From Geosiphon pyriformis uo1 (lineage: Eukaryota > Fungi > Glomeromycota), in the NCBI GenBank assembly GCA_016748015.1, contig JAAOMT010000503.1, positions 397,669-461,668 of the forward strand: a stretch of 64,000 nucleotides of DNA, read 5' to 3'. Under the pieces are notes generated by a model. The model saw nothing but the letters and a program-made list of their open reading frames with translations. It made no database searches and was not told where the DNA came from. Shown here one piece after another: positions 26,659 through 56,462 of this stretch (its first letter is position 1; each line of letters begins with the position of its first letter). The position numbers and the translations under genes are program-made.

Positions 26659-26675
26659 CCTCACAGAGAGCACCA
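26659..26675 (-). promoter_or_regulatory. Gypsy B primer-binding site TGGTGCTCTCTGTGAGG
   Basis: Starts with TGG 2 nt after the 5' LTR; complementary to a tRNA 3' end ...CCUCACAGAGAGCACCA. tRNA identity not determined. Confidence 0.85.
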
Positions 26676-26677
26676 AA

Positions 26678-27934: not shown

Positions 27935-27953
27935 TATTACCAGTGAAATTTTA
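27935..27953 (+). repeat. First ~19 bp of an old A/C-family solo LTR split by LINE copy 2
   Basis: TATTACCAGTGAAATTTTA resembles the LTR start TGTTACCAGTAGAATTTTA; the rest resumes at 55507; outer TSD ATAT/ACAT. Confidence 0.75.
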
Positions 27954-28089
27954 AAAAAAATACCAAAAAAACTTTATCTTTCATTGATCCTCTGACCACA
28001 ATAAAAGCTTGGAGTTGTTGAAAAGATAGCCTTTCTTACCCTTTTTTCTCTTTGTCCTTTTTGTTATTTCTTTAAACATACCTCTATTT

Positions 28090-30018: not shown

Positions 30019-30634
30019 GTAATCTTATTTGGAGAATTGTTACTTGTAACATTAGAGATATAAATGTTCTTGTTAAACAAGACAACATTATTTGATGGCA
30101 TAGAGATATAAACAATTTGGTTTCGATCTTCACAGAGACTAAGTTAAAGGATAAGGCTTGCCCATGGTTGGCTTCCAAATTTGATGGTGTTCCTGTTTTC
30201 TCTTCTGGTTTGAACTCTGGCTATGTGGGCATTGGTGTGGCAATTGTTATGAACAACTCTTTGGCCAAACATGTGTGTAATGTTTCTAAGGTTTCGAGTC
30301 ATCTTCTTTTCATCAGATTACTTTTCAAGAATAAACTTTTGGTTTTGATTTTGGGGCTCTATGCTGGTGTCTCTCTGACTGTTTGGTTTTCTCAGACAGC
30401 TGAGATCAATTCTCTAATCATAAAAACTGTAAATAAATCTTTTTTTGTTATCCTTGGTGGTGATTTTAATGAGGATAGTTCACATAAGTGTGCTAGTTTC
30501 AGGAAATGCCATGATTTGGGGTTAATCAATTCTTTGGGTGTGGGCCCTTTGGCTAAGCAACTGACATGGAACAATTCTCGGGGCATTGTAAAGATAATTG
30601 ATTATGTGTTTGTTTCTTCAAATTTGGCTAACGC
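30015..30634 (+). pseudogene. LINE copy 2 ORF2, APE endonuclease part
   Basis: IVTCNIR, IFTETKL, GVAIV, ILGGDFN, TWNNS..IDYVFVS motifs. Confidence 0.9.
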
Positions 30635-31508
30635 TGTTACAGGATGGTTTTTTTGTTATATTTAATTGCTGATATCCTGTTTTAATTGCAATCAGTCTTT
30701 TGTGAGTTCCTCAATTCTATTTGTGTGATAATGTCACTATTATACTGAAAGCTTTCTTTTTAATGTTGTGATATAAGTTATTCTTCGATTCCTGATTGTT
30801 GTGTGTGTTTATGTACTTCTTTTCAGAGGCTAAACTGAAATCTACCCACTGTCTGGGGTCTTCTCTAAGGCTATTTTTGCAATTGCCTAATGTGTTTCTC
30901 TAATCTAAAAACACAGAATGTTAATAGTCTTTAGCATTTTTTCTAATTCTTACAATAAAGCTTTTATCAATTAGTAACAATGTGAATAATCTTGATCAAA
31001 AATTATTCTTTCAAGAGATTCAGCTGATGAATAATAGTTTTATTCAATAAATAATACAAGTAAGTTTCTTAATACTTTGAGTTGTGATAATTCAGTTTTA
31101 AATATTCTTTTTCATTTCTTTTTGATTTAAAGGTTTCTTGGGATATTTAATTTGAAAGTACGATTTAAAGTGGAGTTTGTTGGATAAAATTGGATCTATT
31201 GCTTGATAAGTTATGATTTTTATTACTTGATTGTCTTTTCCCAATATTAAAGCTACTGTATATATACATGTTTGTAGTTCTACGAGAAAACACATTGTAA
31301 TACTTTCTTTTTGATATTTCAATCTGGTGTTTGCTGCTATTACCAGTTGGTGTTGGCTGCTATTGTGAATTGGTGCTTGCCATTATCACAAAATGGTGTT
31401 TGCTACTATGTTAATTATTACCTTTCTAAAATTATTACTGCACTATATTATGATTGAATAGTTTGTATTATTTTTATGATTTTTTTGCTAAATTCTTAAA
31501 CCATAACA
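30635..31508 (-). repeat. Gypsy D 3' LTR
   Basis: TGTTAC...ATAACA; direct repeat of 49450-50323. Confidence 0.96.
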
Positions 31509-31521
31509 TTATTCCCTCCTT

Positions 31522-32120
31522 TCAAGATTGAGCTCTGTCGAAATCGAAGTTAATTTCTTCATTAAATTCTAAGTTACTATAATGATTCAATACTGTGTTA
31601 TTAATTTGTTGTTGTAATTCTTAAAATTGCGAGTTGGTAAGTCGTCCAATACTGTTGGTTGTTATTATGTTCATGGTTGGGTCCAACAATAGTTTGTGAC
31701 AGTTTTCAAATGCTTTGAAAATTCTGTAAACTGTTTTTGAATGGAATATAGTGTTGGTTTTTTCAATAAAAGATTCTAATAGTTGGATAGTTGTTTTGTC
31801 AAACACTCTAGTTGAGTCTTTTGAGTATAATGTTTGTATGTTCAAGTGCTTTCCTAGTTAATAATAACAGTAATTAATTGGAAATTTCATTTTCAAGTTG
31901 CTAAATGTGTCTGGTGTTAATTCACTTATTTCTATTTCTTCCATTATTAATGTATTGCCCAATGTTATCTCTAATTTTTCAATAACTTTACTGATAAATT
32001 TGTTGTTATATTTGGTAATATTATATGATTCAAAATTATGTTCTTTTTTTGTTTTTGGATTTTCTATTGTTTTTTTTATGTATGTTATTTTGGAGCTATT
32101 AACTGTGATTTTCAGATCGG
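31522..32120 (-). pseudogene. Gypsy D ORF3, C-terminal part (N-terminal part at 42090-42163)
   Basis: Removing C rejoins MILIPENINNITQQLIESLQQLKS|DLKITVNSSKITYIKK, homologous to C ORF3 MIIPQNIQKIFQKLMLALKTLSDLFITINGSQIKYIQK. Confidence 0.85.
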
Positions 32121-33113
32121 TGTTACCAGTAGAATTTTAGCTATTAATTAGCATGAAATTACCCTTATAATTTCTATAATTCATTAGTATATTAATATCA
32201 TTTCAAATTATCATTTATTATTTAATCAATTATTACATATCACGATTCAATTAAAATAATTTAATTAGTATAACAAAAAGTAAGATGATCAAATTACACA
32301 ATACCCTGAACTTTGTAACATTCAAAAATTCGCCGAAATTTACAGAAATTTGCTGAAATTTATAAGAAATTTGCCAAAATTATGAATAGTTCACCCAAAT
32401 TAATTAATAGTTCAGCAAAATAACTTGTAGTTCATCAAAATGTATCTTTAGTTTGCTGGAATTTGGGCAAAAAAGAAAAAGTGCAAGTTCATAAACTAGT
32501 ACTACAACAAGTTGTATAAAAGAAAAGCTTTTCTCTTTTGGAAAATGTATCTTATTTTAGATTTATCTCTTAAAACCGTTCCTATATACACAAAAAGAAA
32601 TAAATATCAAATAATTCGAAAAAACCAAATTCTTTAATTATTGTACTTGGAAAATCCCCAAAACCCAACTAACATTTCGAAATTGATTAGCTACCAATTT
32701 CAGTAAACTGTTAGTGACTCCAGGTCTGGATAGAAAATATTTCTCTTGACAAAATTCTATTTCTTTTACATTTCTTTTATTTTCCTTTTCTTTTCTTATT
32801 ACAATTATTAGGGTAGCCTACAAACAAGATTCCTGTAGAAGAGTTGACTTTCACAGCAAAGTAACTATACATTTTAGTGAGCTTCCAGATGAGCAATTTC
32901 TGGGAAAGAGTTGACGTTTACTACAACGTAACTACATAAAGTAACTGGCAAAGAATTGGCCATTCCACTTATAAGCCCAGCAGTTCAAATTATAGGAGAT
33001 AATTTGAAGATAAATTTAGTTATTGGAGGTTCAACTACTTCCTGAAAATGTGAATTCACAGCAAATCAACATTACCAACATTTAAGAAAAGAGACCAAAA
33101 ATCTCCAGTAACA
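32121..33113 (+). repeat. Gypsy C 5' LTR (993 bp)
   Basis: TGTTAC...GTAACA; near-identical to 41071-42089. Confidence 0.97.
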
Positions 33114-33115
33114 TT

Positions 33116-33131
33116 TGGTGCTCTCCCACGG
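33116..33131 (+). promoter_or_regulatory. Gypsy C primer-binding site TGGTGCTCTCCCACGG
   Basis: TGG 2 nt after the LTR; shares TGGTGCTCTC with family B. Confidence 0.85.
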
Positions 33132-33158
33132 AAATAACACAGCAACAACAAATTCAAA

Positions 33159-36100
33159 GTGGCGACCACACCAGACACAGCAACTCTAGAGTATTACCAG
33201 TCAATTTACACCCACTGCAAGCAAAGATTCAACATTTCAGACGGAATTGAAATTGTAAAGAAATCAGTATACCAATACATTGAAAACCGCATCAACAATT
33301 ATCTTTTTGGAAACTACAACATTTCAGAAGTTAGAAGCAACCTCTACAATAATTTAGTGCATTATTCACATTTGGGAACAGAAGACCTGAACAGTGAAAC
33401 ACTTGCTACCTACTTCCAAGAACTTAATTTTAATATTATTAAGCATTGTGAAGAAAAATACCCAGTACAGTCTAAATACTCTTTTGACTTTGAATCAGAG
33501 ACAGAAACAAGCAATAAAGGCAAACAAAGATTAAAGCAATACTCAAAAACCACTCCAAACACTCCAACACTACAAAAGACAACTGCCAAACACTTGCAAA
33601 CACCTGAACAAGGAACCAGTGTCAAATTACCACTTTCTATTACACTATTTCCAATTTCACTTGTTCAACCACAAACACCAAGTTTACCACTTAGCCATTT
33701 TTCCAGACTAGAAGATTTTCAGTCACCTAGAAATTCTACTCAACAGCAGGAACCAATATTAACAAGTGCCAATATCATTGATTACTTACAGGAAAACGAA
33801 AGTAATCACTCAGAAAGCTTGGAAAGTAAAGAAACTGAATCAGAACCAGAAGAAATTCCAGAAAACGAAGAAGAAATGGCAACTGCTTACATTGCAAAAA
33901 TCCCAAAATTTACTGGTAAAGACAATGATACCAGTCCCCAAAAATGGCTTGACAAAGTTCAAAAAGCAGGAGATGCAAATGGTTGGGTTGCAGCAAGAAT
34001 GCTCAAAGCAATTCCCTACTTTCTCCAAGGAACAGCAGGAGAATGGTTTAAAAATTTAGAAGAACCATTTGAAAACTGGCAAGCATTCAAAGATGCTTTT
34101 CTACAACAATTCATCGACAACAATACCTCTATCACTCTCAGAAACCATTTTCACAATATCAAACAAGAAACATCTGAATCTGTTATAATCTATTTTGAAA
34201 GATTTAACAAACTTCTCAGATGAATCTGACAATTGGAAACCAATGACTACTATTCTGATGCTCAAATTCTGGATCAGTTTATAGCAGGGTTAAAAGACAA
34301 ACTGATTAAAAAAGTCCATCCACATGCTCCAGCAAACTTAGCAACTGCTATTAGACATGCAAAGAGCTATGAAATGGCAATGGAAGAAGCAAATCACACC
34401 AAGCTTGTAAACCTTGCAATTAGAGAAACCAGCTCAGCAACTAAAAAGAAGATAGACCAACTCACAAAAAAAGTTGAAAGCTACTTCACAAACCAATAAC
34501 AACAACAACAACAACCACAAAGATATCAACTCCCACAATGATGCAACCAAAACAATTTTGGATCATTATCCAACAACCAATCTCAAAATTGTTATTATTG
34601 TGGAATTCCAGGGCATTGGAAACGAGATTGTAGGAAATTACAAAGAGACCAACAAAACAGGAGTAATCAACATTACTCTTCACCACAACAATCTTATTAC
34701 CAATCTCCACTACCAACTTATTATTCACCAAGACCACAAAATCAAAACAGTTACTATTCACCAGCTCCACAATTAATGCAGCAACAATATCAGCAATCTT
34801 TACCAATTCAGCCATATCAGACACCACCCATTCAACAATATCAAGTACCAGCAAGAAGATTGGTTCAACATAACCAATCCACACCCCAAAATCAATTGCA
34901 AAATAACCACAACAGAATCAATCCAAATAACCAGTTGGTTCCCCGAAATTCAGGCCAGCAAAGACCCAATTACTATCACACTCAACCCAGTTATCTTACA
35001 ATACCAGAAGAATCGGATTTTTAACAAACTGCACTTTCTGAAGGTAAAATTGCAGCACCAAGATCAAACTCTTCCAACCACACTATTTGCCCAGCTCAAA
35101 TTGCCCAAAATGCTAATCTGTTAGATATATTTCCATTTGAATTTAAGGCAAATAAATCACCATTTTTGCTTAGTAATGCAGCAGTCAATGAACAGAAAGC
35201 AATTACTGCCATGTACACAGAAGCTACAGTGGAAGGAAAACCCATTCCCTTAATCTTAGATAGTAGATCAGCTGGAAGTATCATCACTTACCAGCTGATG
35301 TAACAACTCAAACAAAACATAGACAGACCAGCTCAAACAGTTATTGTTACAGCTGATGGTATGAAGAAGACTCCAGTAGGAGAAATTGATGATTTCTCTT
35401 TTTCAATTGATGGAATCACCATTCCAGTTAAAGTTCTTGTTATGGATGCACCCCAATACCAAACTCTAGTCAGAAATGATTGGCTTCTCAAAGCCAATGC
35501 AAACCTGAACTGGGAAACTTAAGAACTTAAAATCTCATACCAAAGACAATATACCATAGTACCTGCAACCTATGGTACCTTTAACAAACAATCAGAAAAA
35601 GCTCCAGTATTTGAATTTGAAGAGGAGAAAAAAATGCCACTTACTGAAACCTACATGGCTCTTGAATCAACATCCAATTGGGCTGAAGAAACCAAACAAG
35701 AGATTTTCGAAGAATCAAGGGGATGGAAAAAAGTTAGATATTCTACACCAGAACCACAGAAACAACCACTCTATATTCTACTCAAATGCAAAGATTGCAA
35801 CAAAAAACTTTCATCAATGGAAGCATGTATTTTTCCAGAAAAGGAATATAAAACTCATATCTGTTATTTTTGCAAAGCATACCATAGAGAACGATTTGGA
35901 TCTCCAAAAAGAAGTGGAAAATGGGACAACACACCTTGCCTTACATGTGAAGAAATACTACCAGAAGAATGCAATTGGATTGATGTAGCAATGAAAGAAG
36001 GAGTATGTGATCAAACCTGTCAATATGCTCTATCAATTTTGGAAAAAGTCAGAAGAGGGACACCATTTAATGCAGCATACAACAGTGCTCTTAATAAACT

Positions 36101-38796
36101 TTACCACTACCCTCATGATGCTGAAATGATTTTTGACTTAGCAATGGCATTAATCAATGGAGCCACTCAAGAAGATATTCGCCAAATGAAAGAAGCTGAA
36201 TATATTGAGTACACCATGGAATTAGCTGGATTTGATTATGAAGATGAAGTAGAAACCTACTACCAAATTGCAAGCCACACATATCTGACCAAAGAAGCTC
36301 AAATTCAACGATTAGAGCAAATGAACATTCAATTGTGTGAAGAATGTATTATGCCTTGTGATGACCAATAGTGTTTAGAATGTTATGTTCTTAGCATTCC
36401 TCTGCCAGATGAGAATGATGAAAATAAAATCGAATTTGGAGTATCTGAACAAGTAGAAGAACTACTAACCACTCCCATCTATCTTCTTGAAAAGCAACTA
36501 CCTCTACAACTTAAATATTTTGACAACCATGGCCAAAGAATCAGACCAGAAAAAGCACATGAAATTGATGCTGGATATGACCTAAGATACCCAGGAAAAG
36601 ATACTTTAATTCTTCAACCAAAGTCTTTGACAAAAATCAATCTAAAAATTGCTCTTGAAATTCCACCAGGAGCAATGGTTCAAATTGCCTCCAGATTATC
36701 ATTGGCAAGCAAAGGAATCAATATTAGAGGAGAAGTTATAGATGCAGAATACACTGGAGACATTACCATCATGTTACAGAATGAAACAGACAAACCATTC
36801 AAAATTGAACATGCTAAAAAAATTGCTCAAGCAATTTACTTACCCTTAATCAACATTTCGGGTTTACAATCAGTAAACAACAGAGAACAATTGGGAAAAA
36901 GTGAAAGAGGAACTCAAGGTTTTGGTTTAACTGGACGATTTACAGTTCCAGTAAACATAGTTCTTAATACACAAAATGAATTTCACCAGATTCTTCAACT
37001 TCCTCAGCCAATTACCATTTCACCTTTTGGAGAACATCACGAAATTTACACTTGCTCAAAACTCACCACTACACAACAAATCTTTGAATCCAATGAACAA
37101 ATCTGTTTGAAGCATGAAATATCAATTCCAAACGTTTATATTCCCAAAGGAATGAAAAAATTTCGAGTTACATTCTACAACCCCAATAATTACCCTATTG
37201 TTTTATTAAACAAATTAGAAATTGGAATCATACACAGCAATATCTTTCAAGATGAAAACCCTCAAATTGTCTCTAATTTTATCGAAATTATAAAGCACAC
37301 TCTATTCCCAAATCCAAATATCATTCCCACTACTGAAAACTACTACTTGTTGGAAGAAAAACTCTCTTGAATCAATATGAGTCTCTTAGAACCTCAACAA
37401 CAAAGACAATTGAAACAATTGATAGCTGAATTTGCAGATATATTTGCAAAAGACAACAATGACTTGGGAAAAACAGACATTGTTCAACATCAGATCCATA
37501 CAGGAGATGCTCTACCAAAACGTCAACAAGCTTATCGAGTGCCACCTGCCAGCCACCAATTTATCAGAGAAGAGGTCCAAAGAATGCTTAATAACGGATT
37601 GATACAACCATTAAGAAGTCTTTGGGCCTCACCAGTAGTTTTGGTTAAAAAGAAAAACGGAAAAATTAGATTCTGTGTTGATTATAGACAACTGAATAGT
37701 GTTACAATTGGAGATGCCTACCCTCTTCCAAGAATTGATGACATGCTAGATGCTCTGGGAAAAGCTAAGTTCTTTTCAACTTTAGACCTGGAAAGTGGAT
37801 ACTGGCAAGTCGAAATAGACCCAAAAGATAGACCCAAAAGATAGACCCAAAACAGCATTCACCACTCAAGGAGGAAATTATGAGTTTAATGTTATGCCTT
37901 TTGAACTCTGCAATGCACCAGCAACATTTCAGCGACTCATGGATGTTGTCTATGAAGGGCTCTTGTGGCAATCAGTAGTTGTTTATCTTGATGATACTGA
38001 TGTATACTCACCAAGCTTTGAAGCCCATCTCATTCACTTGCAAGAAGTTTTTCAACAATTACAGAAAGCAGGATTAAAGTTAAATATTGAGAAATGTCAC
38101 TTTGGAAAAACAAGTTTGATCTTTCTTGGACACATAGTTAGTAAAGATAGAATCAAACCAAATCCAGGAACAATCAATGCTGTCAAAAACTTTCAAACCC
38201 CCAGAAATACTACAGAACTAAAAGGATTTGTGGGATTAGCCTCTTACTATCGAAAATTCATAAAAAAATTCTCAGAAATTGCCAAACCACTCAATTATCT
38301 TATCAACAAAAATGTACCATACAAATGGACTGAAGAACAACAAAAAGCTTTTGAAATTCTCAAAACAAAATTGACAACAGCCCCAGTTCTTGCTTACCCA
38401 GACTTCAACAAACAATTCCAATTAGCAATTGATGCCTCACATATAGCATTTGGTGCCATCTTATTACAATTGAATGAAAATGGCCAAGAACAAGTTATTG
38501 CCTATGCCAGCAGAACACTCAAGCCAACAGAACTCAAATATGGCTCAACTGAATTAGAAGCTGCTGCAGTTATCTGGGCTCTTAAACATTTTTAACAATA
38601 TCTGAAAAATGGAAAAGAATTTGACATAATAACAGACAACATTGGCCTCAAATGGCTCAATAAAAAGAAAACTGAACAAAGTGCCAAACAGTCTCAATGA
38701 AATGACTTCCTAGCAGACTACAGATATATTGTACACCACAAACCAGAAAAACTACATATCAATGTTGATAGCCTCTCAAGAATAAGACAAGATTAG
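33159..38796 (+). pseudogene. Gypsy C single-frame gag-PR-Cys-rich-dUTPase-RT-RNase H polyprotein (~1870 codons)
   Basis: Fragments starting at 33159, 34233, 34776, 35634, 36627 and 37377 share one frame; the only net shift is a 13-bp duplication in 37815-37853. CYYCGIPGHWKRDC at 34590; LILDS; VYLDD; ends DSLSRIRQD*. Confidence 0.94.
36500..36935 (+). pseudogene. dut: dUTPase domain in Gypsy C polyprotein
   Basis: DAGYDLRY, ASRLSLA, GEVIDAEYTG, KIAQAI, RGTQGFGLTG. Confidence 0.94.
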
Positions 38797-38853
38797 TACC
38801 AACAACAATTTCACCACAACTTACCAACTTACCAACAAAATAACCAAACAAGA

Positions 38854-40239
38854 ATAGATCCCAGAAACTACAGCAATCTTAAAAATTATTTGGAGACCCT
38901 TACCATGCCAGAAAACTGGTCTCCAAATGAAAAACACCGCTTATAACACCAATCAAAACAATATTTCATACACCAGAACAAAATCTATTATAAAAATCAC
39001 AGAAAACCAAACCAGCCACTCAGATTAGTACAAGAGAATGAAAAAGAAACAATTTTATACAACATACACACAGATCTGTCTTCAGCACACTTGGGAAAAG
39101 AGAAAACAATTTAAAGAACCCTTGAACATTATTTTTGGCCTCACATGCAAAAAGACATTTAACAATATGTAGAATCTTGTAATAACTGCCAAAAAAGAGG
39201 AGAAACTTGCCCCACAGAACCTTTAAATTCAATCAAAGTTGGACAACCTTTTGACAGAGTTGGAATTGATTTAGTCAGACCATTACCTATCACAACCCAA
39301 GAAAATCATTATATTGTAGTTGCAGTAGATTATTTTACTAAATGGCCTGAAGCTAGAGCCATCCAAAGAGCAGATGCAAAATCAGTAGCAAAATTCATCT
39401 ATGAAGACATTATCTGTAGACATGGATGCCCAATTGAACTCTTATCTAATCAAGGAACACATTTTGTGAACAACTTGATACAAAAAATTTGTGAACGGTT
39501 CAATGTCAAAAGACCTCTATCATCACTTTATCGCCCTTAAACAAATGGACTTGTAAAACATTTCAACAGAACATTGTGTGAATCTTTAGCCAAAGTTTCA
39601 ACAGACTTTGAACAGGAATGGGATATCTTTATTCCATCAGTGTTACTAGCATACAGAACACTAAAACAAGATACTATGAAACACACACCATTTGATCTTA
39701 CTTATGGAAGGACAGCAACATTACCAATTAATTTCACAGTGGAAACATACCCAGTGCAACCAATCAATGAAGAAAACTTTCAAGAAACACTCCAAAGAAG
39801 AGCCTACACTCTTCTTAGTACACTGGAAGAAAAAAGAAGAATAGCAGCAGCTCATATTGAACATTTCCAAGCTCAACAAAAAGAAAGACATGACAACAAA
39901 TTACCATTTATTACCAATGAATTTAAAGTTGGAAATAAAGTTTTCTTACACAGAACTAAGGCTGAAAAACAATGGAGTGGAAAATTTGAAAACAAATAGG
40001 ATGGACCATTTTATATTCACGAAATTCTAAGCAATGGATCATATAAGTTAAGACTTGATGACAAAATATTAGCAAAAGTTGCACATGGAGACAAACTGAA
40101 ACACTATTATTCCAGAAACAATCCTGAACCATTAATTCCACAAATTAGTACACATTCCCCTTTAATTAATCCTGAAGATATTCCCCGAAATTTAGAACCA
40201 ATAATTATAATAAAACAACAACCAAACTTGAACACTTAA
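38854..40239 (+). pseudogene. Gypsy C integrase, separate ORF (start ATA, probably decayed ATG)
   Basis: HTDLSSAHLG...CNNCQ, VGIDLV, LSNQGTHF, NGLVKHFN, DGPFYIH; no chromodomain. Confidence 0.88.
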
Positions 40240-40382
40240 ATTTTACAATAATTCTCTACTAAAAACACAAAGACAAAAATAGTAAATAATTACAAAACAC
40301 CCAAACCCAAAAACAAATAAAAACCCCATATCCAAAAAATAATTTTCTTTATTTTCTCTTTTCATAATTAGTCAATTTTATC

Positions 40383-41090
40383 ATGATTATTCCCCAAAAT
40401 ATTCAAAAAATATTCCAAAAATTAATGTTAGCCTTGAAAACACTCTCTGACTTATTTATAACAATTAATGGAAGTCAAATTAAATACATTCAGAAAGAAA
40501 CCACAGCCCCAGTAGCAAATCATTTACAGAACTATCACCCCTATAAAAGAGAAACAAGAAGTCACTTTGAGAATAGATTACCAAGACTTTTAAAGCAGGC
40601 ACTAGAAGAAAATCTGCTAATTGCCCCTATTGACATTTCACCAAATGCTACAATGCAACAAAAACTACTACTACTTCTTAATGAACAGAACAATAAACAC
40701 ACCTCTATCTATAAATACTTTCAAATTGGAAAAACACTTTATGAACGAAAACTGGAACTTGAAGCAACAAATCTCACTCCTGAAGTTATACAAAAACAAA
40801 TCTACAATGAATTCAAAACAGCAGCTGGACCAACAAACACTCGCTACAAACTTAGAGCAGCTTTTAGACTCTATGACTTGTTTAATACTTGTGAAAATGT
40901 TCTACAAAATCCAATACTGCAATCAATAAAAGTCCAATACATTGGCAAACTCACAGAACTGAAATTTCAACAATTTTCAGACCAGATTACTTCAATCATT
41001 TTAGATCACTATCTCAATATTACAGATAGTGCTTGGACTTCAACAGAATTCAGTCTTGAGGAAGAGATTATGTTACCAGTAGAATTTTAG
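40383..41090 (+). CDS. Gypsy C ORF3, intact 235-aa protein of unknown function
   Basis: Open ATG-to-TAG frame that reads through the PPT and 20 bp into the 3' LTR; homologues in A, B and D. Confidence 0.85.
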   Translation: MIIPQNIQKIFQKLMLALKTLSDLFITINGSQIKYIQKETTAPVANHLQNYHPYKRETRSHFENRLPRLLKQALEENLLIAPIDISPNATMQQKLLLLLNEQNNKHTSIYKYFQIGKTLYERKLELEATNLTPEVIQKQIYNEFKTAAGPTNTRYKLRAAFRLYDLFNTCENVLQNPILQSIKVQYIGKLTELKFQQFSDQITSIILDHYLNITDSAWTSTEFSLEEEIMLPVEF

Positions 41091-42089
41091 CTATTAATTA
41101 GCATGAAATTACTCTTATAATTTCTATAATTCATTAGTATATTAATATCATTTCAAATTATCATTTATTATTTAATCAATTATTACATATCACGATTCAA
41201 TTAAAATAATCTAATTAGTATAACAGAAAGTAAGATGATCAAATTACACAATACCCTGAACTTTGTAACATTCAAAAATTCGCCGAAATTTACAGAAATT
41301 TGCCGAAATTTATAAGAAATTTGCCGAAATTATGAATATAAGAAATTTGCCGAAATTATGAATAGTTCACCCAAATTAATCAATAGTTCAGCAAAATAAC
41401 TTGTAGTTCATCAAAATGTATCTTTAGTTTGCCGGAATTTGGGCAAAAAAGAAAAAGTGCAAGTTCATAAACTAGTATTACAACAAGTTGTATAAAAGAA
41501 AAGCTTTTCTCTTTTGAAAAATGTATCTTATTTTAGATTTATTTCTTAAAACCATTCCTATACACACAAAAAGAAATAAATATTAAATAATTCGAAAAAA
41601 CCAAATTTTTTAATTATTGTACTTGGAAAATTCCCAAAACCCAACTAACATTTCGAAATTGATTAGCTACCAATTTCAGTAAACTGTTAATGACTCCAGG
41701 CCTGGATAGAAAACGTTTCTCTTGACAAAATTTTATTTCTTTTACATTTCTTTTATTTTCCTTTTCTTTTCTTATTACAATCATTAGAGTAGTCTACAGA
41801 CAAGATTCCTGTAGAAGAGTTGACTTTCACAGCAAAGTAACTATACATTTTAGTGAGCTTCTAGACAAGCAATTTCTGGGAAAGAGTTGACATTTACTAC
41901 AATGTAACTACATAAAGTAACTGGCAATGAATTGGCCATTCCACTTATAAGCCCAGCAGTTCAAATTATAGGAGATAATTTGAAGATAAATTTAGTTATT
42001 GGAGATTCAACTACTTCCTGAAAACGTGAATTCACAGCAAATCAATATTATCAACATTTAAGAAAAGAGACCAAAAACCTCCGGTAACA
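41071..42089 (+). repeat. Gypsy C 3' LTR (1019 bp)
   Basis: Equals the 5' LTR plus one extra 26-bp TATAAGAAATTTGCCGAAATTATGAA unit. Confidence 0.97.
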
Positions 42090-42247
42090 TCGGATTTTAA
42101 TTGTTGTAAGCTTTCAATTAATTGTTGAGTTATATTGTTGATGTTTTCTGGAATAAGTATCATTGTTTTAATTTTGACTGCTATTTTGGAATCTTTTGCA
42201 TGTGGTTTTATGGTTGTTAAATCATTTTTGCTGTAATCTAAGATTAA

Positions 42248-43627
42248 TTATCTTTTTAAATAATGTTCAATTAAAACTATTGGTTCTAAATCTTGTGGAA
42301 TTTGTTCTGGTAGAATTAAAAATAATTGTGTTCTAATTCTGGGTGTCTTTGTTTTTATTACTGGTTTACTGTAATAGAATTTCAGCTGGTTACTATGTGC
42401 TGCTTTTCTTAAAATTTTATCATCTAGTCTTAGCTTGTATGCTTCATTTCCAAGTATTTTGTGAATATAAAATGGTCCATCCCACTTGTGATCAAATTTT
42501 CCACTCCATTGTTTTTCCATTTTTGTATAATGCAACAATACTTTATTTCCAATTTTGTAGCTAATTATATTATCTGGTAATTGGTTATTATGTCTCACTT
42601 TTTGTTGTTCTTGTGATTGTTCAATATTTTGTGCTGCTTTTCTTCTTTTGTTTTCTAAAGTTCCTATTAATTTGTATGTTCTTCTAAGTAGTGTTTCCTG
42701 AAATGTTGCTTCTATGATAATGTCACTTGGATAAATTGAAATAGTAAGTTCAATTGGTAATGTGGGTTTTCTTCCATAAACTAGTTCAAATGGTGTGAAT
42801 TGTATAGTATCTTGTTTTACTGTTCTATATGCTAATAGTACTGCTAGTATGAACAAATCTTATTCTTTTTTATGTTCATTACTAATTTTCACCAGTAATT
42901 CGCATAATGTGCAATTAAATCTTTCAACTAATCCATTTGTTTGAAGGTGGTATGGTGATGACAGTGGTTGCTTGATTCCAAATTTTTGGCTAAGTTCTTT
43001 TAAGATGCTGTTTATGAAGTGTGTGCCTTAATTTGATAGCAATTCTTGTGGACATCCATGCTGGCAAATTAAGTCTTCATGTACGAATTAAGCTATGGAA
43101 ATAGCATCAGCTGTTTTAATAGCTCTAGCTTCTGGCCATTTAGTAAGATAGTTCATGGCTATTGCAATATAATGGTTGTTTCTTGTTGTTATTGGTAAGG
43201 GTCCAACTAAATCAATTCCAATTTTGTCAAATGGCTGTCCAACTTTTATTGGTCTTAATAATTCCATTGTTTTTGCTTCTCCTTTTTGTTGGCATGAGTC
43301 ACAATTTTTTATGTATTGGATTATGTCTGAACTCATTTTTGGCCAATAGTAATGGCTAGTTACATGTTGGATGGTTGCTGTTTTTCCAAAATAGTCTGAA
43401 TGAATATCTGAGTGCATGTTAAATAAGATAGTTTTTTTTTCATCTGTGATTATAACTCTTAATGGATTATCTAGATTTTGTCAATTCCAGTAATAAAGTA
43501 TGTGATTTTAGATAAAATAGTGTTTTGCTAATTTTTGGAACTTAATTAGCTCTTTTATTGATATTTTTTTATCTATTTGTAGTGTTTCCAAGTATTGGCT
43601 GAGGTTTTTGTAAAGGTGGTTGTTTAT
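42248..43627 (-). pseudogene. Gypsy D integrase, separate ORF
   Basis: HSDIHSD..CDSCQ, IGIDLVGPLP, NGLVERFN, KWDGPFYIH; ends QDLEPIVLIEHYLKR*. Confidence 0.88.
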
Positions 43628-43656
43628 TGTTGTTGTGGTGGGTGGGTTGGTAATTT

Positions 43657-46600
43657 TTATGTGTGTCTCATTCTTAACAAACAGTCAGTATTAGCATTTT
43701 TGGTACCTTCTTTGTATTTGATAATATAATTGTATGGTGCTAACATTTGTGATCATTTGGTGTATTTTTTTTTTAGCACTTTCTTGTTATTTAATCAGAC
43801 CAGACCTCTATGATCTGTGGTAATCTCAAAGGGTTGGTACCATAAATATGTGTCAAAGTAAACACAACTCCAGACTACTGCTAAGCATTTAAGTTTATGT
43901 GCTGCATAGTTTTGTTCTGTCATACTGAAACTTCTGCTGGCATAAATGATTACATGTTCTCTTTCATTATCATCTTTTTGTGACAGAATGGCTCCAAGTC
44001 CAGTTCCAGAAACATCTGTGGCCAAAATAAATTTCTTGTTAAAATTCGAATAGATTATTATTGGTAATTCAATGAGCTTTTGTTTAAGGTACTCAAAAGC
44101 TTTTTGTTATGCTTTAGTCCATTCAAATTTCACATTTTTGAATAGTAAGTAATTAAGAGGTTTGGTGATATTTGAAAAGTTTTTTACAAAGCAGCAGTAG
44201 TAAGATGCAAGTCCTAAAAAGCTTCTAACTTCTGAAACATTTTGAGATACTGGAAAATTTTTCACTTTGGCTATTTTTGATGGATCTGGTTTTATTTCAT
44301 TTTTTCTAACTATGTGTCCTAAAAATGCTAGCTCATTTTTTCCAAAGAAACATTTTTTTAGATTTAGTTTAAGTCCAGTGTGTTTCAATCTCTCAAAAAC
44401 TTGTTGTAAATGTTGGAGATGATCTGTGAATTTTGACGAGAAAACATTTGTATTATCCAAGTAAACAACAACAAATTGCCATAGAATTCCAGAGTAAATT
44501 ACGTCCATTAGTCTTTGGAATGTCACAGGAGTGTTTGTTAATTCAAATGGCATTATATTGAACTCATAATTGCCATTTTGTGTTGTAAATGCTGTTTTAT
44601 GCCTGTCCTTTGGGTCCATTTCCACTTGCCAATACTCACTAGTCAAGTCCAGTGTAGAAAACCATTTTGCTCCTCCAAAAACATCGAAGATTTTGTCAAT
44701 TAACAGTATTGGATATGAGTTTTTGGTTGTTTTGCTGTTTAGTTTGCAATAGTTAATGCAAAATTTAATTTTTCCATTCTTTTTTCTTACTAAAACAACT
44801 GGTGAGGACCATGGGGTCATTGATGGTTGGATTATTTCTTTTTCCAACATGCTTTGGACTTTTTCTCTGATAAAATTATGCTTCATTGGTGGAACATGGT
44901 AAGCACGTTGTTTTTTAGGTCTGGTGTCTCCAGTGGGGATTTGGTGTTGAATTAAGTTGGTTCTTCCAAATTTGTCATTTCATGAAAATATATTAGAGTA
45001 TTTTAAAATTAATACTTTTAATTGTTGCTGTTGGTCAGGATCTATTGTTTTAATGTTTAATTTGGCCAATTCTTCTGGCATAAATTGATAGTATTCTAAT
45101 AGTTGTTGCCAATTTATTGAAGTGAGTTTACAGTAGAGAGCAATTTCTAAGAAATTTAGAATTTTTTGTGGTGTTGACGTGTTTTCTAGCTCCGTTCTGA
45201 GATATCCAATGATAGTATCTTCCTGAATGTAGATGGGTTCTTCTGTGGTGTTTGTGATAGAAATTTTTATTCATTGAGCTTTATCAGCTGGAATAAAAAG
45301 GTTAGTAAGTCCTATAAGAAACTGTTGGCAAGTTTCTGGGTAGGATTCAAATATTAGGTCTTTTTCTTTAATTGTCCTTTTTATTTTTATTTCTGATTTT
45401 CCATATAGTAAGAGTGTAATAGACTGCTCATTTTTAATTACTTTGTCTTTTTCCTCTATTGTTTTAGTAAAATTCGCTTCAATTCCTTTTTCTGTTGATC
45501 CGAAATCAAAAGTTTTTCTTGTTGTTTGTGACAATTCTTCACAATTTTCTACTGGCACAAATTTTCCAATTTTTACCAATGGTAGAAAAATTGCTTGTGC
45601 AATTTTTTCCTTAGATTCAATGGTATAAGGCTTTTCTGAATTGTTCTATAGCAAAACCATTAAATTTCCAGTGTATCTGAAGTCAATTACTCCTTCTTAA
45701 ACACTTATTTTTTTTTTCATGAGGCTTGATCATGACGCTATTTAAACTATTATTCCTGGTGGAATTTCAACTGCTATTTTTAGGTCAATTTTGGTGATGC
45801 TCCTGGATGGTAACGTTGTGGATTGGTCTTTTGGATAACATAGATCGAATCTGGCATCAGTTGGATGGGCTCTTTCAGGTATTATTCCTAAGTGCCCATC
45901 ATCAAAGTATCAGATGTTGATCACCTGTTCTAGGTTGGTATAGGCCACAAATTTTTCTGATTCGGAACTGTCAGGTGAGTTTTGTTGATTTATTGATTGA
46001 TTTTGAGACTGCTGATTCTCAATTTCCATTTTTTTTTTAAGTCCCTTTCATCTCAACACTTTTCACAGCACTGATTTTGGCACAGGATAAGACAGTTTTC
46101 GTAGAGGTAAGTGTTGATTTGGATGAGGTATTGTTCTTACTCTTGTCGAGTAGGACATAGTTGTTGATAGTAGTTCTGGAATTTGTCCACTGAATCGAAC
46201 ATGTTGTAGCTGACAACTTTGTCAGCTACTTCGGCTGACTCTTTCCAGTGTCGTATTTCTTCAGTGGTTCCTCCTCTTACTTTGGCTTGTGCAGTGTTGT
46301 ACAACTCATTCTCGTCATGTGGGTAGTGCTATAGTCTTTTTAATGCTCTGTTGAATGCTGCTTCAAATGGCATTTCTCCTCTTATCCAGTTACAGATGAG
46401 GATCGTATATTGGCAAGTTGCATCACACATTCTTCCTCTGCCTGGTATGTCATTCCAGTCATACTCTCTTGGTAACAGTTCTTTACAAGCAAGGCACGGT
46501 TCCTTGTCTCATTTTCCATGTCTTTCTGGGTAACTGTATTTTTTTTTATTACAACGGTTACAATAGTAGTGAGTGGAGTTTCTTGGGTCTTTGTTTGGTA

Positions 46601-49367
46601 CACTGCACACAGTCATAGATGAGAGTTTCTTCTTGCAAACCGAGCATTCTAACTTTGGTCTGTGTTGCTGGTGGTTTCTTCATAGACTTACCTGGTTTCA
46701 TTCGGATCTTTCTTCACTGATCCATGTTGATACAACTGGTAGTTCTGTTCTTTGGTCATTAGCCCAAGAGAGCTGATAGGTTTCGATGGCTGGTAGTGCT
46801 GGATTTTTCTCAAATTCGAAGGTAGGTCTTTGGTTGGCACTGGGTTTTTGGAAGTGGCCACAGGTGGCTGAAATTCTGGCCTGGTGGCTATTATAATTGA
46901 TCAAAAGCTCTTGGGTGGTCCAGTTTAGAGTGGCATTGGCTTTTGTTAACCAGTTATTTCCTACTAACACTTGATATTGTGTAGTGTTCATTACTAATAC
47001 TTTTGTAGATATTACTATGCCATTAATTTCGAAAGAGAATGAGTCGATTTCACCATAAAACAGCTTTGTACTTTCATTGGCTGTTATGATTTGGGATGTC
47101 GTGGCATGATCAACTTTGAAACCTAGTTGGTTTACTAGTTGAAGTATTACAATGCTTCCAATGGATCCGCTGTCTAAGATAAGTTTAATTGAGGTATTGT
47201 TTATAGTGGCTTCTGTATATATAGTAGTGATTGGGCATTTTTTGTCCAATGCTGCTCTACTGAACATAGTTTTGTTTTTCTCTAATTCAAAAAGAAAAAT
47301 AGCTGCGAGGCTGCTATTTTCGGTGGTAACTGCTGGTGGTATTGTCTGGCTCAATTTTTTGGAGGAATTTTTGGTTCTGTTTATGTTTCTACCATCATTG
47401 TTTTCAATGATTAGATTTTCTGGTATATTAAGATAAGTTTGTTGATAATTTTGGTAGTTTAGATTGGTTTGCTGATTGGTTCCAATATGGTTTGGATTCC
47501 TCTGGACCAATGCGTTCTGGTTCTACATGGGCTGATTTCAGGCCTCGGGATGCCAATATGGGTTGGTTATTATGGGCTGTTGCTGGTAAGTTTCTTGATT
47601 TTGATATGTGGTAAGATATTGGCGTGGTATTGGCGTGTACTGGTTTTTGGACATTTGGGATGGCATGTAGTAATTATTTTCACATGTTTTCTGCATTATT
47701 TGCATTCAACATTGACTAATCAAATGTTCTATGTATTTGCAAAAATAGCAGACATGCATTTCTGTTCTGAATTCCTAATGTGACGAGTGATTATTTTGAC
47801 TGTTGCTAACTTCCTGACTGTGTCTTTAGAGTGGTTGGTATGTATTTCTTCTTGGATCCAGGATAAGGTAACTTTCTATTTTCTTAGAGAGTTCCTTCCT
47901 TAATTGCATTACTCTTTTCTTTAATGTTTCTGTCTTATTTTTCTTCATTACTATGTTAACTATTTGATTATGGTTAGCTTTTTTCTCAGCCAATTCAAGG
48001 GCTCTGGCGAGCGTAACGGTTTCTGGTAAGGAATTAGGATAGGCAGGGCGTACTCTTCCTAAAATACTGCTTTTTAATCCTCTAATAAACTGATTTAAAA
48101 CCTGAGAATCAGTGTAGTATCTTTGTTCAATCACTTTAATCTGATGGCAAATTCAATTGAATCAAGCAAGATATTGGGTGAGAGTTTTACTAGTATTTTG
48201 CTTGATAGTATTGAATTTGTTCTGTAGTTGGATTATGGCATTTGGGTTGCTAAAATACTCCAGGAGTGCATTTTTAAATTTGGCGAAGCTCGTGGGTTTT
48301 GTTTCCAGACTTTGATATCACAAGTCGGCTGTGCCTTTCAGGAAGAAAGATAATGTTTGAATTGCTCTTTGGTTGTTCCAGTTATTTGTTTGGATGGCTT
48401 TTTGTGTTTCTCTAAGCCACATGTGCATGTCCGTTTCTTCTTCTTCTCCTGAGAAATCTGTTAGTCTTGTAATATATGATGTGGCCATTTTGTTGCCATT
48501 TTCTGCTGGTGGGCTTATTGGTCTAAGAGGAGGTGGGATGATATTTCCTTGAGCATTCCTAAAGGTGGCTTCCTTTATATCTGGTTTTTTCTCTTGATCA
48601 TGAGTTTTTTGGTTTCTGGACTGGCTGCTTATTCCAGTGACTGGTCTTGTAATTGTTTTTTCACTGGTTTCTTTTTTGGATTCTAATTCTGATTCCTCTT
48701 CTTGGTTTTCAAACCCCATTTCGAATTTTGGCTGAAAAAAAGGGTTTTGGAATAGTGATGAATATCCTCTTGTAATTGGTATGTCTCCTCAGTTACGTTG
48801 TTTAATTTTATCAGTATAACTAAGAGTTCTTGGCATTTGTGGAGTTGATGTTGATGATAATGCAGCTCCTAATGGAATTTGTATCTTATTTTCTGGTGAA
48901 AAATGGTATGATTTATCTTCTAGTGAATAAATACGTTGTTTTTTTATTGATTGAGTGACAGTTTTCTTTGGTGTTTGAGCAGGTGTTCCTAGTTTTTGCT
49001 GGTTACTTTCCTGATTAATTTCTGAATTTTTTTTGGTTTTGTTGGCACATTCCCTAGTGTTTCCTGTGGATATTGGAAAATTTTTGTTGGCATATTGCTT
49101 AATTTTTCGATGAATTTTGACAATAGTTGCGGCTATTACTGCTACTTTTTTTGTAGTGTATTGTGATAATTCTCTATACAATCCAAGTTTTGTGTCATGT
49201 GGTTCTTCTTCCTTTCCTATATGATAATTTATTCTGGCATTGATATAATAAGTGAGAACAGATTCTGCTGGACAACACTCTTCTGGTAATTCAAGATCAC
49301 TTTGATTTTGTGTGTAAATAGCATGGCAGAATTCAAGAACAGTAAGGTTAAGGGTTTTTGTCACCAC
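43657..49367 (-). pseudogene. Gypsy D gag-PR-Cys-rich-dUTPase-RT-RNase H polyprotein, fragmented
   Basis: GTG start; CYFCKYIEHLISQC; LILDSGS; ERAHPTDARFDL...VIDFRYTG...KIAQAI...FGSTE dUTPase (~45490-45920); VYLDN; ATDVSGTGLGAILSQ. Ends DCLLRMRHT*. Confidence 0.92.
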
Positions 49368-49449
49368 TTTTGTCTCTTCCTTTTTAGCAATGAATTATTG
49401 CTAATTATTATTTCCTTTTTGATTTTCTTTCCTCATAGAGTTCACCAAA

Positions 49450-50323
49450 TGTTATGGGATGGTCTTCTTGTTATATTTAATTGCCAATATCTCATTTTAA
49501 TTGCAATCAGTCTTTCGTGAGTTTCTTAATTCTATTTGTGTGATAATGTCACTGTTATACTGAAGACTTTCTTTTTAATGTTGCAATGTAAGTTATTCCT
49601 CAATTCCTGATTGTTGTGTGTGTTTATGTACTCCTTTTCAGAGGTTGAACTAAAATCTACCCACTGTTTGGGGTCTTCTCTGAGGCTATCCTTGCAATTG
49701 CCTGATGTGTTTCTCTAATCTAAAAACACAGAATGTTAATGGTCTTTAGCACTTTTCCTAATTCTTACAATAAAGCTTTTATCAATTAGTAACAATGTGA
49801 ATAATTTTGATCAAGAATTATTCTTCCAAGAGATTCAGCTGATGAATAATAGTTTTATTCAATAAATAATACAAGTAAGTTTCTTAATATTTTGGGTTGT
49901 AATAATTCAGTTTTAAATATTCTTTTTCATTTCTTTTTGATTTAAAAATTTCTTGGGATATTTAATTTGAAAGTATAATTTAAAGTGGAGTTTGTTGGAT
50001 AAAATTGGATCTATTGCTTGATAAGTTATGATTTTTATTACTTGATTGTCTTTTTCCAATATTAAAGTTACTGTATATATACATGTTTGTAGTTCTATGA
50101 AAAAACACATTGTAATATTTTCTTTTTGATATTTCAATCTGGTGTTTGCTGCTATCACCAGTTGGTGTTGGCTGCTATTGTGAACTGGTGCTTGCCACTA
50201 TCACAAGATGGTGTTTGCTACTATGTTAATCATTATCTTTTTAAGATTATTACTGCACTATATTATGATTGAATAGTTTGTATTATTTTTATGATTCTTT
50301 TGCTAAATTCTTAAACCATAACA
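49450..50323 (-). repeat. Gypsy D 5' LTR
   Basis: Direct repeat of 30635-31508; PBS at 49447-49431. Confidence 0.96.
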
Positions 50324-53300
50324 ACGCGATGTTGAATCACTATGTGGTTGAAGTTAGTGAACACTTTGACACTGACCACAAGGCTGTTTCTGTAAACATA
50401 GGCCTGGGTGGTTTGTTGGATGTGAGGCTCTCATCACTGCACAGGTAGACAAACAAAGATCATTGGAAGTTTAATGTCAACAATATTAGTAAGACCAAAT
50501 GAAATGAGTTTAAGGGTGCCTCAGTTGCCAATGCTGCTATGTTTTTGGAAGCATTTGTTGTGGCTAATAGGCTCTCAGATTTGGATGCTATGTGGGATGT
50601 TATTTGCAAGGTTGTGATTTTCTCGGCCAATAAAGTGCTCAAGAAGAGGTGGTTCAGAGGGTTTGATAACATTTTCACTAAAGAGTTTTCTAGGTTTCAT
50701 AAACTTGAATTGTTAGTGTCTAAGTTGGTGAAAGCTTCCCATTTGGTTTTTAGTAACATCTTCGCTTTGCTCTTGGATACTTGGGTCGGACTTGATCCTA
50801 AAGATGCTTCTATGACAAGTTCTCTCTTTCTGTTTGGTTCTGATTTTGATTTTATTCATATAGTGCTGGCTAAAGCAAAAAAATCTTATTGTTCTGCAAA
50901 ATTGTTGGAATCCAAGTATGCTGAAGAGTCTCAAATCAAGCAAGCTATTGAGAGGAAAATAGAGAGTTTTGAATTTGACAAAGGCCATACTATCAAAAGT
51001 GTTTTGGAATAGCCCTTTCATAGAGTAATATTGGATTATTTGGTTACAAGCAATGATTTGGTCCTGGAGCCTGATTTGGTTAAATCTAAGGTGGATGATA
51101 TTATGGAGGGTTGGACTTGAAAGCATGTGGTGGTGTTTGATATCTCTGATAATTAGGTGCACCAGTTTCAGTCTTTAGACTATGTTTTTGATGGTGTCTT
51201 TTCTAGTGTGATGTGTTTAATTGGCTTTGCTGAGATGTTTGGTGTTATTTCAGATTTGCCCAATGGAAAGGCAGCTGGTCTTTCTGGTATCAGTAATGAG
51301 TTGTGGAAGCATTATGACAAATCAGTTTTAGATATGCTTGTGGTGCTCTTGAATTCATGCTTGGATTGTAAATTAGTACCTGGGCCTTAGAGGGAGGCTT
51401 GGGTTTCGATGATTCCTAAACCATATGAATGGGAGGGTGTTTTCACAAATACATGTCCTATTGCTTTGATCAAAATGGTGTTACCAAATGAAATTAGGGA
51501 TATTATTTAACATAAAATTATCTTATAATTTCTATCATTAATTAGCATATATTATCGTTTCAAATTATTACTTATTACATTAGCAAAAATGTCTGAAATT
51601 ATTATTTAATTAATAACCCAAATTGTACACAACATAAATGTAACCTAATTGCAATGATTAATCATGCAATACCCTGAACTATGTAATATTCAAAAGTTTG
51701 CTGAAATTTGTAGAAATTTGCTGAAATAATTGATAGTTCACCGAAATATCTAATAGTTCGCGGAAATAACTTGTAGTTCACCAAAATGTATCTTTAGTTT
51801 AGCAAAATTGTAGAAAATAGCAAAGTTCAAGTTCATAGAATAGTGTTACGACAAGTTGTATAAAAGAAGAGCTTCTCTTTTCGAGAAAATGTATCTTGCT
51901 TTAGATTTATCACTTAGAACCACTCCTACACATACAAAAAAAAATAAATATAAAATAATTCGAAAAACCAAAAACTTTTTAATTATTGCATTTGAAAAAT
52001 TCTCAAAACTCAACTAACATTTTGAAATTGATTAGCTACCAATTTCAATAAACTGTTAATAACTCCAGGCCTGGATTGAAAATGTTTTCCTTAACAGAAT
52101 TCTATTTCTTTTACATTTTTTTATTTTCTTTTTTTCTTACTATAATCATTAGGGTAGTCTACAGATGAGATTCCTGTAGAAGAGTTGACTTTCACAGCAA
52201 AGTAACTACACATTTTTTTGTAAGCTTCCAGACAAGCATTTCCTGGGAAAGAGTTGACGTTTACTACAATGTAACTACATAAAGCAACTGGCACGGAATT
52301 GGCCATTCTACTTATAAGCCCAGCAGTTCAAATTATAGGAGATAATTTGAAGATAAATTCAGTTACTGGAGGTTCAACCATATCCAGAAAATGTAAATTT
52401 ACAGCAAACAAACATCGACAACATTTAAAAAAAGAGACCAAAAACCTCTGATAACAACAGTCCACAAGATTCTTTCAGACAGAATCTCTTCAGCATACAG
52501 TGCATTTGATGTTTTACATGAGAACAATTTTTCTGTTTTGAAGGGTACAACTATGTAGTCACTTATTTTTGCCATTGGTTCTGTTGTTGAAGATGCATTA
52601 AAAAAGAACCGAAAACTATGGCTGGTTTTGCAAGATATGCATAAGGTGTATGATTCTGTTGGTTGGAAACATCTCGAAAGGAGCCTAATTAGAATCAAGA
52701 TATGTGATAAGTTCATAAGATTTTTTGGTAGCATTCACAATGGTTGCTATAACAGGGTTATGATGGATTTTGGCTTGTCTGATGGTTATTGTGTTCATGA
52801 TAGTTTGGATTAAGGAGAGGTTTTTTCACCACTTTTTTGGCACATATTTTATGATCCACTATTATGTGAGATCAAAAAGCAGGAAAGTGTGTGTGGCTAC
52901 AGATTGAATTCTTATTTTATTTCCAAAACTGGCTGGGCTGAATCTTAGGCTGGGCTGACTTCATTTTTAGCTGTCAGTGCTTTTGTCAATGATACAATTT
53001 GGGTTGGTAGCAGCCAGGCTGCTATGCAATACATTCTCAATGTTGCTAGTGATTTTTTTAGGTTCAATAACATTTCAATTAATAATAACAAGACTGTAGC
53101 CATTCTTATCAACTGTTGAGTAGCAAGTCCCTATCTGACTATTAGTGGGTTACCTATTTCCATTGCCAAAAAAGAGGAGTCTCATTGTTATCTGGATATA
53201 TTTCTATCTTCTGAGAGTCTTTCGAAGTTCAGTCTGGTGAAGACTCATTCAGACATTTGTTTTTTTGTCAATTTTGTTCTTAAGAAGACTGTGTTAGATA

Positions 53301-55366: not shown

Positions 55367-55506
55367 TGTTGTTCTGACTAATCTGAGTGTCTGGTCATGT
55401 GTAGCAAAGGCATGATTTGTGCCTAGTTTAGATCATTTGTATAATGTATAGCACTAGGTGGCATTTGGACTTTACTTGTTAAACTTTTAATAATAATAAT
55501 AAAAAA

Positions 55507-56462
55507 AAATTTTAGTCATAAATTAGCATAAAATTACCCTTATAATTTCTATTATTAATTAATATATATTAATATCATTTTAATTATTACTTATTACTTA
55601 ATCAAATTATCAAATATTATTATTTAATTAATAATTTAATTTATACAATAAAAATTAGAATATCAAAATTACATAATATTTTGAACTATATAACATTTAA
55701 GAATTTGTCAAAATTTGTAAAAATTCATCAAAATAATAAATAGTTTACCAAAATAATTAATAGTTCGATAAAATAACTTGTAATTTGTTAAAATATATCT
55801 TTAGTTTATTAAAATCATAACAAAAAAAAAGTTCAAGTTTATAAATTAGTACTACAACAAATTGTATAAAAGAAAAGCTTTTTTTTTTAAGAAAATATAT
55901 TTTATCTTATTATAGATATTTTATTTTCTTTAAAATTATCTTACAGTACAAATTCAAAATAAAAATATATTTTAAAAACCAATTTTAAAATAATTACACT
56001 TGAAATTTCCCAAAATCCAACTAATATTTTGAAATTAATTAGTTACTAATTTTAATAAACTATTAGTAATTTCAGATCTGAACCAAAAAACAATTTCTTT
56101 AATAAAATTTTATTTTTTTTATATTTTTTATATTTTTTATATTGTTTTTATTATAATTATTAGAGTAGTTTACAGACAAAATTCTTGTAGAAGAGTTAAC
56201 TTTTACAGCAAAGTAACTATATATTTTAGTAAGCTTTTAGACAAGCAATTCTTGGAAAAAAGTTGATGTTTATTATAATATAACTATATAAAGTAACTGG
56301 TATAAAATTGTCTATTCTATTTATAAGTTCAGTAGTTTAAATTATAAAATAATTTGAAAATAAATTCAGTTATTAAAGGTTTAATTATTTACAAAAAACG
56401 TGAATTTACACCAAATAAGCATTAATAACATCAAAAAAAGAGACCAAAAACTTCTAGTAACA
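55507..56462 (+). repeat. Old, heavily AT-decayed A/C-family solo LTR (main part)
   Basis: Colinear with the C LTR from AATTTTAG to AGAGACCAAAAACTTCTAGTAACA; followed by ACAT. Confidence 0.9.

Follow-up and report, generated by a model that had tools for sequence, protein, structure and literature searches.

We examined a stretch of 64,000 nucleotides (the window) from the Geosiphon pyriformis uo1 contig JAAOMT010000503.1, positions 397,669 to 461,668, in which six Ty3/gypsy insertions, namely four full-length elements (A, B, C and D) and two solo long terminal repeats (LTRs; S and the older O), are each flanked by a 4-bp target-site duplication (TSD) centred on a pyrimidine-purine (YR) step (6/6 sites, P = 1.9e-4), three of them securely CG. 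The pattern is real and probably reflects a soft preference for CG, resting on eight sites once two junctions in relatives are included. That some preference for CG exists we regard as likely; towards the fuller account, an integrase with a soft, probably methylation-blind preference for CG at the YR centre of an A/C-CG-G/T site, like that of the Ginger1 DNA transposons, we lean more cautiously.

Target-site duplications of the six insertions

The insertions, their TSDs and the element that hosts several of them are as follows.

4634..14527, minus strand: element A, full-length gypsy of C's family; LTRs 4634-5606 and 13555-14527, 6.7% apart; TSD ATGT 4630-4633 and ATGT 14528-14531
17382..27351, minus strand: element B, second family; LTRs 17382-18257 and 26678-27351, 7.0% apart; TSD ATAT 17378-17381 and ATAT 27352-27355, in 8% G+C DNA
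27935..27953, plus strand: 5' end (19 nt) of O; TSD copy ATAT just before it (27931-27934)
27954..55505 (ends approximate), plus strand: long interspersed nuclear element (LINE; ORF1, endonuclease, reverse transcriptase [RT], RNase H; TAA/A tail), in O; host of D and S
55506..56462 (start approximate), plus strand: rest of O; TSD copy ACAT directly after it (56463-56466), discordant with the first
30635..50323, minus strand: element D, third family, in the LINE endonuclease; LTRs 30635-31508 and 49450-50323, 6.4% apart; TSD ACGC 30631-30634 and ACGC 50324-50327
32121..42089, plus strand: element C, the youngest, nested in D; LTRs 32121-33113 and 41071-42089, 3.6% apart; TSD TCGG 32117-32120 and TCGG 42090-42093
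51479..52456, plus strand: solo LTR S, A/C family, in the LINE RT; TSD ATGG 51475-51478 and ACAG 52457-52460, discordant, inferred to have been ACGG at insertion

All six pairs had been listed in an earlier, sequence-only reading of this DNA, and the letters confirm each of them: a 4-bp duplication holds at 6/6 sites and the 5-bp alternative at 0/6. That reading assigned the pattern to 30631..52460, which encloses only C, D and S, with A, B and O outside. C's empty site is seen in other copies of the D family with the 4-mer present once (three contigs, all from run X1, in a search of contigs of three runs from one sample aligned to C's left LTR), and the LINE reading frames continue through D and S if only one of the two TSD copies is counted. 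The left TSD copy of O is real, because the 5' end displaced by the LINE agrees with family 5' ends at 16/20 nt, a match seen nowhere else beyond the known LTR ends. One family comprises A, C, S and O, and B and D represent two further ones, with integrases 49-58% identical between the three families.

A probable preference for CG among YR steps

The flexible central YR step anticipated by the sequence-only reading thus holds at every site, as does its description of the DNA as CpG-poor (31% G+C and a CpG observed/expected ratio of 0.20 across the window). Its further proposal, that CpG is favoured beyond YR, is supported by the secure CG centres at 3/6 sites, though as a soft rather than a universal preference: B, with no CpG at hand, went into TA. 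Three secure CG centres would be rare at random sites (P = 6e-7 to 4e-4) and also under a rule requiring YR alone, for which P is 4e-5 at today's CpG density, 0.006 after correction for decay and 0.027 on generous assumptions; host DNA at the sites now has 0.6-0.7% CpG. In a likelihood fit to the six pairs, CG was weighted 302-, 59- or 27-fold against the other YR steps (95% lower limits 30, 6.5 and 3.4); the decay probabilities used are our own estimates from small LTR-pair counts, and those for S and O are assumptions. With both strands counted, the outer position of the TSD holds A or C in 10/12 half-sites in the window (P 0.016-0.019), and in 14/16 when the two junctions from relatives, L065 and L037, are added (P 0.002).

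A generic rule of flexible YR steps, with three CG centres owed to luck and to hosts that were CpG-richer when the elements landed, would explain part of this. YR enrichment is general among viruses with 4-bp TSDs in the available sections of PMC4422553, A and B fit with TG and TA, the L037 junction is also TG, and the generous null gives P = 0.027 before any penalty for post hoc discovery. We consider this rule unlikely to be the whole explanation, because equal weights for all YR steps are rejected (likelihood test, P 5e-6 to 0.0024), C's host had only about 1% CpG when C inserted, one of the two out-of-sample junctions is ACGG, and the rule does not predict the A/C bias at the outer base.

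Decay of the sites and their original centres

Across 3515 columns the LTR pairs of A-D differ by 196 transitions vs 8 transversions. Change at C is seen in all contexts: CpG is hit hardest, at 38-100% of sites in A, C and D (in B just two CpG sites could be scored), ahead of CpC (20-34%), CpT (8-22%) and CpA (6-19%), and a return mutation to C or G is therefore rare. This hypermutation, with CpC second only to CpG and with sharply bounded 8-11% G+C blocks at 14532-17377 and 27356-27934, looks similar to repeat-induced point mutation, signatures of which are reported as undetected in Gigaspora margarita in the account available to us. Two explanations that would have given the TSDs a decay of their own were rejected: TCGG and ACGC are not CpG contexts of unusual persistence (survival 2-4%, the same as others), and hypermutation of TSDs beside AT-rich flanks after insertion is not borne out by the LTR pairs, which show no consistent gradient.

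Against this background, the centres of C and D were CG at insertion, and both copies still are. For S, ACGG at insertion is secure with high confidence, because the pair is discordant (TG/CA) and the site's codon encodes the conserved Thr of LIET(A/T), a LINE motif, which requires C at position 2; paralogous LINEs keep this Thr, and TG/CA is an ordinary CpG outcome (6-43% of LTR CpG sites). The sequence-only reading had likewise found ACGG the simplest ancestor here. The centre of O (TA/CA) may originally have been CA or CG. Under the fitted preference, the posterior for CG is 1.0 for C, D and S, 0.8-0.9 for O, 0.3-0.5 for A and 0.003-0.005 for B, so the suggestion that all six sites were once CpG is not sustained. 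The related statement that every centre is CG or a deamination product of it is formally true, but those products together with CG are simply the four YR steps and carry no CG-specific information.

The same figures bear on a strictly CpG-targeting integrase, with every other centre the product of later decay. Each centre can formally be reached from CG, and 196/204 LTR-pair substitutions are transitions. We nevertheless judge strict targeting very improbable: B would need four hits over its two TSD copies while its LTRs are 7% apart and its termini intact, a near-strict model (CG weight 10,000) lies 2.1-3.7 log-likelihood units below the optimum, and the TG of L037 stands next to near-identical LTR ends.

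Junctions in relatives

Outside the window, LTR-host junctions could be verified at 2/80 metagenome loci (the best 80 of 554, most of them cut off or collapsed through the LTR). The L065 junction is ACGG, with the element end set by alignment to the LTR of L011, and its host frame resembles, as judged from a motif, a hAT transposase. Ends called solely from terminal inverted repeats turned out to be wrong at L018, L077 and L078, where the true ends precede the primer-binding site (PBS); the calls at L015 and L060 were spurious and that at L057 (CCCC) is unverified, and all of these were excluded. More distant gypsies in contaminant contigs, with integrases 27-33% identical, have the TSDs CATA, ATAG and the 5-bp GGGTC; a CG centre is therefore not general. 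Several prokaryote assemblies hold contigs with gypsy RT or integrase (L084, L086-L098), probably as contamination from eukaryotic hosts.

Other searches for relatives returned little. The LTR-end pattern was absent from the viral, metagenome and prokaryote-genome contigs searched, scanning viral contigs for proteins gave no relatives, and in four prokaryote assemblies that include contaminant contigs the PBS pattern occurred about as often as chance predicts. No RNA match was listed, which says nothing about expression. Gene models crossing LTR ends gave 0 matches in one search and two in another, one spliced into the middle of an LTR and one spurious. The nearest intact integrase relatives are Rhizophagus and metagenome proteins, 41-51% identical.

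Comparison with known systems

In their probable target choice these elements resemble Ginger1, and in their geometry foamy virus. As described in the available sections of Bao et al. (2010) (PMC2836005), Ginger1 DNA transposons have a gypsy-type integrase with YPYY, HHCC, DDE and GPY/F features, TGTNR termini and CG-centred 4-bp TSDs, CCGG in 75% and CCGT or ACGG in 24%; ACGG is the sequence at L065 and the one deduced for S. These integrase features and the TGTNR termini are shared by the elements here. The elements of the window differ from Ginger1 in being fungal, in having LTRs, gag, protease, dUTPase, RT and RNase H and no terminal inverted repeats, and in a looser specificity (TCGG, ACGC and ATAT, without any CCGG); no OTU or Ulp1 tail was found on these integrases, unlike Ginger1. 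Foamy virus and other retroviral integrases that make 4-bp TSDs share the stagger and the central YR, and the integrase of prototype foamy virus is a sequence relative (E 4e-19), but what the sections of PMC4422553 at hand describe is a general YR enrichment rather than a choice of CG among YR steps. The Rhizophagus proteins annotated as DDE-type integrases and the soil-metagenome gypsies share the integrase clade, the arrangement of polypurine tract and PBS, and a sense open reading frame (ORF) in the ORF3 position. Atlas clusters automatically named 'Gypsy retrotransposon integrase-like protein 1' are listed at 0.96, which we note as a lead only.

The Drosophila gypsy, Idefix and 412 clades also consist of gypsy LTR elements that make 4-bp TSDs, and each clade has a palindromic motif of its own (PMC3276498, in the sections available), but their motifs are AT-rich (TATA, ATAT) and only B agrees with them. 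Targets here might likewise be family-specific, with the A/C and D families favouring CG and B preferring ATAT as the 412 and Idefix clades do. B is indeed the only clear non-CG site and stands alone in its family, its integrase shares 49-58% identity with the others, and Drosophila TSD motifs track clades. We find this explanation improbable, given that it has a single site for B and that B's 8% G+C surroundings had no CpG to offer and TA at 20% of steps, so that one soft preference suffices.

Several points weigh against a Ginger1-like CG preference. B was almost surely TA at insertion, CG there being very unlikely, and A (TG/TG) was more likely TG than CG. About 9% of A's CpG sites are expected to end as TG in both copies. 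The sequence-only reading had derived an ancestral ACGT for A from a transposase motif, K-R(CGT)-P-R-C-F, but an ancestral Arg codon cannot date CG to A's insertion because the host (3950..4629, plus strand, resuming at 14532; transposase-like, heavily decayed, 18-19% G+C) had already decayed to 18% G+C, and neither of its halves has a Pfam DDE match; its likeness to pogo/DDE_1, judged by eye from a motif, is tentative. At L037 the junction is CTGT, with a TG centre, and the LTR pair is only one base apart. The end call at L002, the locus with the ORF3 closest to the window's, is unverified and followed by TAGA, which is not YR; if true it would speak against the preference, but it was excluded from the count. 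CCGG, the main Ginger1 motif, occurs at 0/8 sites, and in the portion of Bao et al. available (PMC2836005) no gypsy lineage groups with Ginger1 at significant bootstrap. The pattern was moreover noticed post hoc, and a three-fold penalty raises the generous P to about 0.08, although it weakens only that figure; the outer-base test was devised after the Ginger1 motif was known; and the sites number eight in total (six in the window plus L065 and L037), with three families pooled.

A possible mechanism, and the nesting of the elements

In retroviral intasomes a 4-bp stagger requires the target DNA to bend sharply at its centre, midway between the active sites, and YR steps, which unstack most readily, permit this (PMC4422553, sections available); the same constraint would account for YR centres at six of six sites. 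Base contacts by the integrase core and the GPY/F-SH3 domain may then select CG and the outer A or C, a reading of bases that we suggest because of the CG excess and the outer-base bias. Where CpG is absent, as at B and perhaps A, the integrase would accept TA or TG, and a C-to-T process of the host would later erode each TSD copy independently, giving discordant pairs such as those of S and O.

The sequence-only reading also proposed that CpG choice, perhaps of methylated CpG, would steer insertions into other repeats and explain their nesting. We find no support for this: the sites of A, B and O lie in DNA of 8-18% G+C with 0 CpG in 598 flanking steps each, and nesting is expected because 41.2% of the genome of G. 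pyriformis is occupied by LTR elements (PMC11952901, in the part available), so that abundance and selection suffice. The choice of region would likely follow repeat abundance, chromatin and selection, not CpG. An integrase, or a partner of it, that recognises methylated CpG and thereby directs insertions to silenced repeats with no need of a chromodomain seems to us quite improbable. No chromodomain was found, all six sites lie within other repeats or decayed DNA, the L065 junction is likewise in a transposase-like frame, and in Rhizophagus irregularis transposons are marked by CG methylation (bioRxiv 10.1101/2021.03.30.436303, in the part available). Yet there is no CpG near A, B or O, and D's two TSD CpGs persist while its LTR CpG sites with both copies kept number 0/~12, a survival with odds of about 3% if they decayed like D's LTR CpGs, which leans slightly against heavily methylated targets; the LTR coverage again makes nesting expected. 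It would be a long shot, too, that a Ginger1-type integrase of a chromodomain-less gypsy clade of arbuscular mycorrhizal fungi picks methylated CpG and so uses DNA methylation as its landing signal, which would direct new copies to silenced repeats, with CpG decay retiring old repeats as targets.

A CG choice without any reading of methylation, by contrast, would draw elements away from old repeats and favour young repeats and CpG-richer DNA, opposite to what the sequence-only reading expected, and host CpG decay would reshape the element's target space. It would also be a functional trait common to the YPYY gypsy clade and Ginger1, bearing on which gave rise to which (PMC2836005, sections available). 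AT-rich, sequence-specific TSDs in gypsy clades and the CG-centred 4-bp TSD of Ginger1 are already known; in a literature search whose coverage left out most subscription papers, we found neither a CG-centred TSD in an LTR retrotransposon nor a description of TSDs of mycorrhizal-fungus elements.

Element class and coding content

The elements are dUTPase-carrying, chromodomain-less Ty3/gypsy LTR retrotransposons, and neither chromoviruses nor Ginger1. The elements have direct LTRs with TG...CA ends, a PBS and a polypurine tract; the exceptions, one B LTR ending in TA and O starting with TA, are both G/C-to-A/T decay. Their 4-bp TSD falls within the 4-6 bp typical of Ty3/gypsy. The gene order is gag-protease-RT-RNase H-integrase, as in Ty3/gypsy, with Pfam matches to gag, zinc knuckle, RT, RNase H and integrase on C and to protease, RT and integrase on D. 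The features of C discussed here are the following.

36372..37367, plus strand: dUTPase-containing part of pol, upstream of RT (PF00692, E 1.2e-20)
38851..40113, plus strand: integrase, stop-interrupted, with a YPYY-type motif, HHCC, rve core and GPF/SH3 and no chromodomain
40368..41090, plus strand: ORF3, an extra 240-aa sense ORF that follows the integrase and precedes the 3' LTR; no match in Pfam

The sequence-only reading of an integrase without a chromodomain is upheld: C and D have no chromodomain match at E<=0.1 (Pfam) and integrase tails of about 40 aa, and a tail of at least 45 aa occurs in 0/120 homologues (proteins of 231-737 aa only). With YPYY positions assigned from the text description in PMC2836005, not its figure, C's integrase has all four and the Pro is absent from A, D and B; the positions are kept in 99, 96, 111 and 115 of 120 homologues. 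GPF is present in C, A and D (B's segment lies outside that alignment), and GP[YF] in 116-118/120 homologues. In Rhizophagus and metagenome relatives (P0123-P0242) the integrase is called as a stand-alone protein, some 420 aa long and with a Met of its own, not fused to pol, and in several relative loci it starts 0.4-2.5 kb after RNase H.

A dUTPase lies upstream of RT in window families at 36372-37367 (plus) and 22268-23167 (minus). C's dUTPase ORF matched no metagenome relative locus of at least 2 kb; its homologues among the matches listed (at least 120) are all labelled Geosiphon pyriformis, and at least 434 related proteins are listed, the public assembly holding hundreds of copies.

ORF3-type sense ORFs between integrase and 3' LTR also occur at 5587-6309 (minus) and about 31509-32118 (minus), and an ORF of 119-266 aa takes this position in 23/29 relative loci examined (L001-L081). 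A profile from 19 such ORFs matches the window's ORF3 (E 2.7e-8, one-sequence search), as does the ORF3 of L002 directly (E 2e-19), which suggests that ORF3 may be an accessory gene of the clade; no Pfam family was found for it, and the Atlas result is weak, with recognition below threshold. The gag frame (32889-33350, plus) is in register with the final codons of the 5' LTR, but a coding extension of gag into the LTR is doubtful, as three stops are common to all five aligned copies.

The window as a whole is a pile of decayed transposable elements, with every ORF of at least 150 aa inside one of them or in the run of 867 N bases at 1231-2097. C lies within D, and D and S within the LINE, which landed 19 nt inside O and so separated O's 5' end from the remainder by 27.5 kb. 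A 57-bp tandem array (9 copies listed) occupies 3233-3916, and 40-bp repeats (17990-18200) vary in number between B's two LTRs (877 vs 675 bp).

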